Origin: Escherichia coli
GTDB taxonomy: Bacteria > Pseudomonadota > Gammaproteobacteria > Enterobacterales > Enterobacteriaceae
Length of the DNA: 64,000 bases
Assembly: GCF_044647545.1 (NCBI RefSeq)
Contig: NZ_CP172818.1
Reading direction: 5' to 3' (one strand)
A program made the position numbers. Shown here one piece after another: positions 7,301-10,300 of this stretch. The stretch's first letter is position 1, and the number at the start of each line of letters is the position of its first letter.

Positions 7301-10300
7301 ACATCATCGGATGTTTGTCGGGATTTTCCCGCAGCCAGCGGGCGTTGCGCAGGGCATACCATGCCCAGCAGACCACGGAAACTAACGCCAGCACGATGCC
7401 AGAGGTATAACGTGCCCAGTCAAAATCGGGGAGTCCGTGGTTTAACTCAGCAATATTCACACACGCCAGGCCGATGCCAATACAAACCAGTGCCGGGGCG
7501 AGTTTTCCCCACGCGAGTTTGCCGTCGCGCTGGCTATAAAGCAGATTGGCAAAAACGGGAATCACCACCGGCAGGGTGCCGATAATCATCGTGGAAACAG
7601 GCGCACCAGTACGTTGAATGGCACTGGCAAGGCAGAAGTAATAGATGAGGTTGCCCATCATAGTGAGCATCAAGGCGGTAAGCCAGTCGCGACGCGCCAA
7701 CTGACGCAGACGCACGCGTCCCAGCCAGGCAATGGGCAGCGCAATTAACCCTAACGCCAGATAACGCCCCATCGACTGCAACATCGCCGGGTATTCCGGT
7801 ACGATCAACGGCCCGACAAAAATAAGCCCCCACATCAACCCTGCTAACAGGGCGTACAGCACGCCGCTAATCATTACTGGCATCCATTGATCTGTCAGAA
7901 GAAACGTTCAGGAAGCAGATATGATTGCTCCCGGCATCCCGTCATTATCAGAGAGGATGCGGGAGGATGCCACTTTAATTAACTAGTTATTAACATTAAA
8001 AAGATGGCTTACGCTTTCGGCTAACGTTGTCGTTGGGCGGCCAATCAATTTGCTAAGCGTTTTGCTGTTATCAAACAGACCACCTTTCGATGCGCCAACG
8101 TCAGAATCCGCCAGCATATCCGCCAGTCCGTCAGGCAGTCCGACGCTTTTCAGTGCCGCGGCGAAATCAGCTTCACTCAGATTTTGATAGGTAACCTGTT
8201 TGCCGCTCTGTTTGGTCAGCTCTGCCGCTAACTGTGTCAACGTCCAGGCACTATCGCCCGCCAGTTCGTAAACCTTGCCTTCGTGACCGGCTTCGCTAAT
8301 CACGCGTGCCGCAGCTGCCGCATAATCTGCCCGCGTTGCTGAGGCGATTTTGCCATCGCCCGCCGCACCGATAAATACGCCGTGTTCCAGTGCTGCCGGG
8401 GCGCTGGCGAGGTAGTTTTCGCTGTACCAGCCGTTGCGCAGCAGGGTGTAAACGATGCCAGAATCAGCCAACATTTTCTCCGTCTCAATGTGCTCATCGG
8501 CGAGGCCGAGCGGAGATTTATCCGCGTGAAGCAGACTGGTATAAGCGATAAATTTCACACCAGCCGCCTTTGCGGCATTAATAACATTACGATGCTGCGG
8601 GGCACGTTGACCCACTTCGCTGGAAGAGATCAGCAGTAGTTTTTCCACTCCCTGAAGTGCAGATGTCAGTGCGGCTTCATCGCCGTAGTCAGCCTGACGC
8701 ACGGTAATGCCTTGTGCTGTCAGTGCCTGGGCTTTTGCCGGATTACGAACGATAGCCACTATTTGGCTGGCAGGAACCGTTTTCATCAAGGATTCAATAA
8801 CATAGTGACCAAGTTGGCCAGTGGCACCAGTAATTGCGATCATAGGAAGTCTCCATCGTTTGTCTTGTGTTTAAATACGCTAACACCTAAACTTACTTTT
8901 AGTAAGTACGTACAAAAAGGTAAGTATGAGATGAGTCAGGTTAGCCTGTCGCAACAACTGAAAGAGGGAAATCTCTTCGCTGAACAGTGTCCGTCGCGCG
9001 AGGTGTTGAAACACGTCACCAGCCGTTGGGGGGTGTTGATTCTGGTGGCGCTACGCGAAGGTACTCATCGCTTTAGCGACCTGCGGCGCAAAATCGGTGG
9101 GGTGAGTGAAAAGATGCTTGCGCAGTCGTTACAGGCGTTAGAACAGGATGGTTTTCTTAACCGTATCGCGTATCCGGTGGTGCCGCCGCATGTGGAATAT
9201 AGCCTCACGCCGCTGGGCGAGCAGGTGAGCGAAAAGGTTGCTGCACTGGCGGACTGGATTGAGTTGAATTTGCCCGAGGTGTTAGCGGTGCGGGATGAAC
9301 GTGCGGCATAACTGCCGGATGCGCTGAGCTTATCTGGTCTACGGTGCATGGCTTGTAGGGCGGATAAGATGCGCCAGCATCGCATCCGCCAATAAATGCC
9401 GGATGCGGTTGATGATTTGCAGGCCGAAAAAGAAGTGTATTACTTACTCAAATCCACCTGATAAATCGCAAACCCGATATCATCGGTCGCGACTTTATTC
9501 ATCGGATATTGCCCTTTATCTTTAATAAACGCTGCGGCTTTATCTGACGGAGAGGTTTCGAAACGGATATCCAGTTTCTTATCGCCAGTTATCGGTGCTA
9601 AACGCCAGTTGTTATCCGCCGCCGGGTGAATTTCCCCCGCACGTTTCGACTCTTCAGCAATCCACGCTGCCAGCACCGAGCGGTTCTCATCCGGTGAAGC
9701 AAAAGCGATATGGCTGTCGCCCGTACCGGCAAATTTGCCGCCGTAAGCGCGATAGTTATTGGTGGCAACGAGGAACATGGCGTTCGGATCAATCGGCTTG
9801 CCGTTAAAGATCAGGTTCTTAATCCTTTCCGCATTGGCATTAATCATCTGGCACTCGCCGTCATAACGGGCGGGCTGGGTAACATCAATCTGATAATTCA
9901 CACCATCAATCACATCAAAGTTATAGGTGCGGAAACCATCCCAGTTGATGAGTGACTGTGGTTTCGTGCTGTTAGGATCAATCTGGTTAAACTGTCCGGC
10001 GGAGCACTCCAGCCACTCTTTCACCTCTTTACCGCTGGCTTTCACCACAATCAGCGTATTGGGATAGAGATAAAGATCGGCGGCATTACGGAAAGTCAGC
10101 TGACCTTTTTCCACCTCCACATAGCTTGCCGGGTCATTTTTGCGACCACCAACTTTAAACGGTGCGGCAGCTGAAAGCACCGGCAGTTTTGCCAGATCCG
10201 GATCGCCCTGAATGTAATGCTCGACATACGCTTTTTGCGCGTTGTTCACCACCTGCACGGTCGGATCGTCCTGCACCAGCGCCAGATAGCTATACATATT

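Follow-up and report, generated by a model that had tools for sequence, protein, structure and literature searches.

Between the divergently transcribed genes qorB and ytfH of Escherichia coli lies a 36-nucleotide (nt) block of non-coding DNA that is held, across orthologous loci, as tightly as the most constrained coding positions. We think it likely that YtfH, a regulator of the HxlR family, represses both qorB and its own gene from a composite operator within this block, and that modification of its Cys20 residue releases it. The locus belongs to a stretch of 64,000 nt of E. coli chromosome (contig NZ_CP172818.1, assembly GCF_044647545.1), here called the window, in which a regulator gene stands adjacent and divergent to an NmrA-like quinone oxidoreductase gene. 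To judge from the alignment of orthologous spacers, the operator is probably larger than the inverted repeat lying in it, since the conserved block takes in a second, abutting site. Window positions of all features are collected in Table 1.

A first-pass annotation of this DNA had reported a perfect palindrome at 8891-8907, midway in the interval 8844-8930, and had proposed YtfH as a local repressor of qorB. The inverted repeat, hereafter site 1, is present exactly there, the interval coincides with the qorB-ytfH spacer to the nucleotide, and the identities given to the two genes (NmrA-like for qorB, HxlR-type for ytfH) are borne out by Pfam, RefSeq and identical annotated chromosomes. The repeat is off centre: from its midpoint, at 8899, the distance is 56 nt to the start codon of qorB and 32 nt to that of ytfH. 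Taken alone, the dyad is not beyond chance. Perfect repeats with 7-base-pair (bp) arms and a spacer of 0-6 nt occur in 4.7% of shuffled 87-bp spacers, and the whole window contains 50 of them. It is significant despite this chance-level occurrence because it is conserved across orthologous loci. When the window was searched for ACTWACT-N3-AGTWAGT with up to two mismatches, the sole other match was GCTAACTTCCAGCAAGT at 23227-23243, with two mismatches, which is the level expected by chance. Within the species, the 45-mer 8886-8930 was retrieved at 99% identity or above in 3,910 of 5,426 complete E. coli genomes by megablast, which needs an exact word of 28 nt; the genomes that were missed would be accounted for by a common central single-nucleotide polymorphism, of the kind that other species show at 8911 (T/C).

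The case for the operator rests on comparison between species. A protein-guided scan of one genome per species gave 80 loci from Enterobacteriaceae, Proteus and Morganella, 79 of whose spacers were aligned; eight more distant loci bring the set to 87. A first homologue search had returned, among the matches listed, near-identical proteins only; the distant relatives of YtfH (52-65% identity) were reached via a 50%-identity representative library, and their contigs were then compared. When the 79 spacers are aligned, top-base frequency averages 0.95-0.98 at 8892-8927, as against 0.74 at 8844-8888. The corresponding values for the ytfH coding sequence of the same loci are 0.67 at third and 0.98 at second codon positions, and nowhere in that coding sequence do consecutive columns stay at 0.9 or more for longer than 8 nt. 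Around the block, variation is free in the half of the spacer next to qorB and at the third codon positions of ytfH. In the full set of 87 loci the dyad arms are fixed except at 8891 and 8894, both in the left arm, and for one substitution at 8901. The arms match perfectly in the E. coli sequence, as had been claimed, but position 8894 is A in 60 of the 87 loci (T in 24), which accordingly carry a 6/7 version, ACTAACT...AGTAAGT; the perfect dyad is restricted to Escherichia, Citrobacter, Salmonella, Proteus, Morganella and a few others. Conservation of the dyad in orthologous spacers, which the first-pass annotation had put forward as a check, was therefore found, the arms being kept in Enterobacteriaceae, Proteus, Morganella and the relatives at 52-65% YtfH identity.

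The most distant loci are informative as to which positions matter. In six of the eight, the motif CT(T/A)AC-N5-GTAAG TAC(G/C)(T/C)AC-N5-GGT(A/T)AGT survives; the exceptions are L089, which has G at the variable arm base, and L088, which is more diverged. Among these relatives the symmetric arm positions alone stay fixed while the spacers change: the dyad spacer reads TTTTA, TTTTG, CTTTC, TTAAA, TAAAT or TTATA, and the A-tract at 8914-8918 is replaced by TTTTT, ATAAA, CTGAA or CGAAA. The divergent NmrA/HxlR pairing is itself stable: 78 of the 80 genome loci keep it, as does each of the five distant loci with a contig long enough to include the next gene (L082, L084, L086, L087 and L089). Loci in which the gene context has changed are equally instructive. 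In Enterobacteriaceae bacterium RIT714 (L053, 2420-2500), qorB has been lost, yet ytfH still has the whole block upstream, altered at a single place (TACGTAA), which suggests that autoregulation alone can maintain it. In Lelliottia nimipressuralis CCUG 25894 (L042, 2430-2500), a thioredoxin-like gene in the same direction takes the place of qorB; site 2 has decayed there, and site 1 is an alternative perfect palindrome, ACTAACT-TTT-AGTTAGT, the change of the right arm to AGTTAGT having restored symmetry with ACTAACT. Another strain of the same species (L066) has kept both qorB and the normal block. At L090, where a 48%-identical YtfH paralogue lacks an NmrA neighbour, the block is missing upstream. 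Kept in the first of these loci, re-symmetrised in the second and absent at the paralogue, the motif travels with ytfH, which matches the prediction for an autoregulated operator.

The fixed positions of the block form two symmetric units, site 1 and a pseudo-dyad that we call site 2, which is probably a second dimer site. Five of the six complementary pairs of site 2 are invariant (8907-8909 with 8924-8926, and 8912-8913 with 8920-8921); variation in its arms is confined to the sixth pair, 8911/8922, and to the mismatch at 8910. Its right arm is at the same time a third half-site, a direct copy of the right arm of site 1. Its fourth base, 8922, is A in 79 loci and T in eight, the same A/T wobble as in the left arm of site 1. 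In E. coli this half-site adjoins the ytfH ribosome-binding site and start codon; in L082 it stands about 38 nt upstream of the likely ytfH start, and its conservation is for this reason not explained by ribosome binding.

The two sites appear to be set over the promoters. The putative extended -10 of qorB emerged only from the multi-species counts, in which its key positions are kept in 80-85 of the 87 loci (ungapped counts: 8877 A85, 8881 T85, 8882 A85, 8884 C81, 8885 A80). Its predicted -35 partner would fall within the dyad, in the right arm and spacer; L082 and L085 have TTACCA as the homologous hexamer, and an independent consensus scan of L082 picked out TTACCA-17-TATGAT at the place homologous to the E. 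coli qorB promoter. The same kind of scan applied to the E. coli spacer gave a single site, which overlaps the qorB start codon and was rejected as implausible. From the putative promoter, qorB transcription would start near 8870, so that site 1 would span about -21 to -37, and site 2 about -37 to -56; candidate dyad and pseudo-dyad would between them overlap this promoter, with its conserved extended -10 and predicted -35. For ytfH there are two candidate -10 elements, both of which fall inside the dyad; the potential -35 partner of the first, at 8870-8875, is TTGTGG in the consensus and TTTAAA here. The qorB and ytfH promoters, if so placed, overlap and should therefore exclude each other. 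K-12 coordinates and gene names for this locus were not found in the supplements of the Cappable-seq (PMC4782308) and ROSE (PMC10301672) papers, and the promoter positions are accordingly those that we infer from sequence. RNA polymerase holoenzyme with RpoD (sigma-70) does select the qorB/ytfH spacer by itself, as a listed peak in genomic SELEX (systematic evolution of ligands by exponential enrichment; PMC3946193).

Evidence that YtfH acts on qorB comes from a preprint of December 2025, in which CRISPR interference (CRISPRi) with ytfH, read out in single cells, raised qorB by a log2 value of 4.6 (about 24-fold), qorB being the sole differentially expressed gene; its authors note the divergent arrangement (bioRxiv 10.64898/2025.12.20.695731, Supplementary note 6). 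The proposal of YtfH as a local qorB repressor thus finds support in a loss-of-regulator experiment, although one that is preliminary and not peer-reviewed (bioRxiv 10.64898/2025.12.20.695731). Other papers list YtfH merely as an uncharacterised factor. The protein carries the conserved N-terminal cysteine of its family at the sensing position, in a C-P motif at the start of helix alpha-1. This residue, Cys20, aligns with the N-terminal cysteine of HxlR and of PG_0823, the alignment with YodB (PDB 5HS7, E 8.8e-10) begins at it, and the triplet C20-P21-S22 is invariant in 13 YtfH orthologues, down to 48% identity. The sensing thiols of YodB (PMC8063818) and HypR (PMC3351151) belong to the residue that aligns with Cys20.

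These observations can be put together in the following scheme. A YtfH dimer would bind site 1, ACTWACT-N3-AGTAAGT, and a second dimer would probably occupy the abutting pseudo-dyad TACGYAC-N6-GTAAGTA. Site 1 would cover the -35 and spacer of the extended -10 promoter of qorB on the minus strand and, in the divergent ytfH promoter that overlaps it, the -10 and start region, so that bound YtfH would keep RNA polymerase off both promoters and repress both genes. Modification of Cys20, either S-alkylation by a quinone or electrophile or a Cys20-Cys20' disulfide formed under oxidants, would release YtfH and induce qorB, with its quinone reductase, together with ytfH. That the signal would be a quinone or electrophile is suggested by the invariant Cys20 and by the analogous cases of QorR, YodB and QsrR. 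One could further envision that the differing spacings of the two sites give a graded or cooperative release, with qorB and ytfH induced at different thresholds. Physical binding of YtfH, occupancy of the second site, the positions of the transcription starts and the nature of the signal are elements of the scheme that we infer.

Several points weigh against this reading. No more than about 4% of cells were found to show the CRISPRi effect, and the preprint states that there are no binding data or binding experiments for YtfH (bioRxiv 10.64898/2025.12.20.695731). In principle, its cause might be that the divergent, overlapping promoters ceased to interfere with each other, and not that YtfH protein was lost. 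Most genera have the 6/7 dyad and not the perfect one. The spacer of site 2 is one base longer than that of site 1, which makes site 2 a probable rather than a certain second dimer site. The E. coli promoter hexamers are weak and were missed by the consensus scan of the E. coli spacer, the transcription starts being placed from sequence. To our knowledge, no inducer of YtfH has been described.

One alternative does without a dedicated repressor. The block would then be conserved solely through the overlapping divergent promoters and the ytfH ribosome-binding site packed into it, and the dyad would be incidental. The putative qorB -35, both ytfH -10 candidates and the ytfH Shine-Dalgarno sequence and start codon do all lie within 8893-8930, and RNA polymerase holoenzyme needs no other protein to select the spacer in genomic SELEX (PMC3946193). 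We nevertheless regard this explanation as quite unlikely. The hexamers match consensus poorly, yet conservation of the block equals that of second codon positions; its invariant positions are the symmetric ones, while the A-tract and the dyad spacer vary in distant orthologues; it stands some 38 nt from the ytfH start in L082; a symmetry-restoring change has occurred in L042; and knockdown of ytfH derepresses qorB (bioRxiv 10.64898/2025.12.20.695731). Alternatively, the dyad might be the operator of another factor, for instance a global or MarA/SoxS/Rob-type one, with YtfH acting elsewhere or indirectly. In Yersinia enterocolitica, expression of a gene named qor2 rises 7- to 11-fold when rob is overexpressed (bioRxiv 10.64898/2026.02.23.707304), and the lack of YtfH binding data (bioRxiv 10.64898/2025.12.20.695731) leaves room for this idea. 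It is made improbable by the block's accompanying ytfH even after qorB loss (L053, L042), by its persistence with ytfH orthologues far outside Enterobacteriaceae, by the 7-3-7 geometry, which fits a winged-helix dimer of the HxlR family, and by the status of qorB as sole responder to ytfH knockdown (bioRxiv 10.64898/2025.12.20.695731). Inspection of the spacer by eye, including its variable half at 8844-8888, revealed no convincing MarA/SoxS/Rob box (marbox). The Yersinia result in itself hints at a second, MarA/SoxS/Rob-type input, provided that this qor2 is an orthologue of qorB.

A YtfH that binds the block and activates qorB, in the manner of HxlR and HypR, must also be considered. These two activators are the closest solved relatives of YtfH by sequence after 1YYV, and site 2, at about -37 to -56 from the predicted qorB start, would be suitably placed. 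Activation is very unlikely all the same, given that ytfH knockdown raises qorB about 24-fold (bioRxiv 10.64898/2025.12.20.695731), that site 1 would be centred near -29, over the -35 and spacer, whereas the footprint of the activator HypR extends from -53 to -95 (PMC3351151), and that the quinone-reductase regulators QorR and YodB are repressors (PMC3351151, PMC8063818). As to the inverted repeat being a nucleic-acid hairpin (a structure in the ytfH or qorB 5' untranslated region, an attenuator or a cruciform) and not a protein site, a folding energy of -9.1 kcal/mol (z = -2.0) is obtained for the plus-strand RNA of 8886-8930 in E. coli, and the left arm is able to pair with either the right arm or the third half-site. 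The idea is extremely unlikely when other loci are brought in: there is no compensatory change, since A8894 in 60 of the 87 loci faces an invariant A8904; the Enterobacter homologue (z = -0.23) and the minus-strand RNA (z = -0.5) fold no better than shuffles; and the A-tract needed for long pairing is replaced without compensation in distant orthologues. A qorB start near 8870 would moreover leave the dyad outside qorB mRNA, which argues against a hairpin there. No Rfam match and no terminator-like site were found at the dyad: an Rfam scan of 8700-9100 gave only a sub-threshold Trp_leader (E 0.46; 17.8 bits against a cut-off of 41 bits), and a terminator was ruled out by the diverging genes, the AT-rich stem and the absence of a T-run.

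Repression by YtfH from the composite operator has close parallels. QorR of Corynebacterium glutamicum is a DUF24/HxlR repressor of the 1-Cys type, which forms an intersubunit disulfide; it controls a quinone oxidoreductase and senses diamide and H2O2 (PMC3351151, PMC11633110). As with YtfH and qorB, an HxlR regulator with a single N-terminal cysteine is paired with a quinone oxidoreductase gene; YtfH comes from a different phylum, and the two proteins were compared by family and description. Some pipelines label Citrobacter orthologues of YtfH "Redox-sensing transcriptional regulator QorR". The C. glutamicum genes studied by Ehira et al. in 2009 are reportedly divergent, with QorR binding the spacer and regulating itself, and qor2 is said to have been described there as a homologue of E. 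coli ytfG.

YodB and QsrR are quinone-sensing repressors with a thiol-based sensing cysteine and quinone or azo reductase targets, and they bind as dimers to short palindromes in consecutive major grooves (PMC8063818). The operators described for the family, TACT-N7-AGTA for YodB and a 7-2-7 inverted repeat for HypR, measure 15-16 bp overall, close to the 17 bp of site 1 (PMC8063818; PMC3351151). YodB belongs to the same protein family as YtfH, and its half-sites TACT/AGTA are also found within the YtfH arms (acTTACT/AGTAAgt), although the spacing is TACT-N3-AGTA at qorB/ytfH. Unlike YtfH, YodB carries two cysteines and controls a multi-gene regulon with no divergent linkage to the yodB gene. 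For QsrR the motif is GTATA-N5-TATAC, whose bases differ from those of the qorB/ytfH dyad. A conserved abutting second site is not among the features described for YodB and QsrR operators in the available text. HypR (YybR) and HxlR of Bacillus subtilis share the family and the conserved N-terminal cysteine, and YtfH matches them at E 1e-13 to 1e-17. The HypR repeat is present both at its target and downstream of its own promoter, where it serves autorepression (PMC3351151). HypR and HxlR differ in activating their targets from upstream sites, whereas YtfH appears to repress from a site over the promoter.

Table 1. Features of the qorB/ytfH locus, in window coordinates
Feature	Position	Strand	Sequence	Remarks
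Site 1 (dyad ACTTACT-N3-AGTAAGT)	8891..8907	both	ACTTACTTTTAGTAAGT	perfect 7-bp arms, TTT spacer; core CTWAC-N5-GTAAG
Near-invariant non-coding block, 36 nt	8892..8927	both	CT(T/A)ACTTTTAGTAAGTACG(T/C)ACAAAAAGGTAAGTAT	from top-base frequency; K-12 4434073-4434108
Site 2 (pseudo-dyad)	8907..8926	both	TACGTAC-N6-GTAAGTA	6/7 complementary; 2-bp overlap with site 1; read from sequence
Third half-site (right arm of site 2)	8920..8926	plus	GTAAGTA	direct copy of site 1 right arm, 18 bp downstream
Putative qorB extended -10 (TGnTAnnnT)	8877..8885	minus	TGTTAGCGT	multi-species counts; fixed 9 nt from left arm
Putative qorB -35	8900..8905	minus	TTACTA	predicted; 17-bp spacer to extended -10; inside dyad right arm and spacer
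Candidate ytfH -10	8893..8898	plus	TTACTT	TAACTT in 60/87 loci; sole conserved plus-strand TAnnnT; tentative
Alternative candidate ytfH -10	8898..8903	plus	TTTAGT	picked up as TATAGT in L087; tentative
Cys20 codon of ytfH	8988..8990	plus	TGT	sole cysteine of YtfH; invariant in orthologues
qorB (ytfG)	7983..8843	minus		open reading frame and RefSeq annotation; NmrA-like NAD(P)H:quinone oxidoreductase; presumed regulated target
ytfH	8931..9311	plus		HxlR-family winged-helix regulator, 126 amino acids; RefSeq start MSQVSL
Divergent qorB/ytfH spacer, 87 bp	8844..8930	both		from qorB start codon (CAT on plus, 8841-8843) to ytfH ATG (8931)

The locus itself is typical of the species. Segment 7900-9500 is 100% identical to several complete genomes annotated qorB/ytfH/cpdB, and the K-12 annotation agrees. 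The qorB product matches Pfam NmrA (E=2.9e-24) and, over its full length, the solved YtfG structure (PDB 2ZCU/2ZCV, E 2.7e-177). The HxlR domain PF01638 covers residues 29-115 of YtfH (E 2.6e-32; 110.9 bits, cut-off 20.8), whose nearest structures are 1YYV (the Salmonella orthologue), 2FSW, HxlR 7BZE, HypR 4A5M and YodB 5HS7. A TTG-initiated open reading frame (ORF) of 199 amino acids (8712-9311, plus strand) crosses the spacer in the ytfH frame, and database entries of 138-212 amino acids for YtfH (P0001-P0010) seem to be gene calls extended too far at the N-terminal end. The start codon of ytfH is overlapped by a two-codon mini-ORF, ATG AGA TGA at 8925-8933 of the window (ATG AAA TGA in K-12). 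The first ATG of this mini-ORF, inside the third half-site GTAAGTATG, is the in-frame ytfH start in many genera, so that the start codon has shifted between lineages. A predicted GalR-like site within qorB presumably lies at about 8384-8399 of the window, by an unchecked coordinate conversion. The prediction of this GalR-like operator in the qorB coding sequence, at K-12 4433627-4433642, is unrelated to the dyad (PMC5110547).

The design proposed here is ordinary: an HxlR/DUF24 thiol-switch repressor paired with a quinone reductase is already known from related bacteria. Less ordinary would be a two-site composite operator over mutually exclusive divergent promoters, kept almost to the base from Escherichia to Proteus/Morganella, with YtfH as a dedicated one-cysteine quinone/electrophile sensor of enterobacteria; we put this forward only tentatively, as something possible that we do not count on. 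No new kind of mechanism is involved, and specialists would find nothing surprising in the result. YtfH is among the last transcription factors of E. coli to lack a mapped binding site, and the present analysis, which offers a predicted operator, a promoter model and Cys20 as candidate sensing residue, helps to close a gap in the annotation of this organism. QorB has been linked to quinone detoxification and, in a knowledge-graph study, to antibiotic susceptibility (PMC9055065). If the proposal is true, E. coli gains a thiol switch of the QorR/YodB/QsrR type for quinone and electrophile stress, with QorB under its control.

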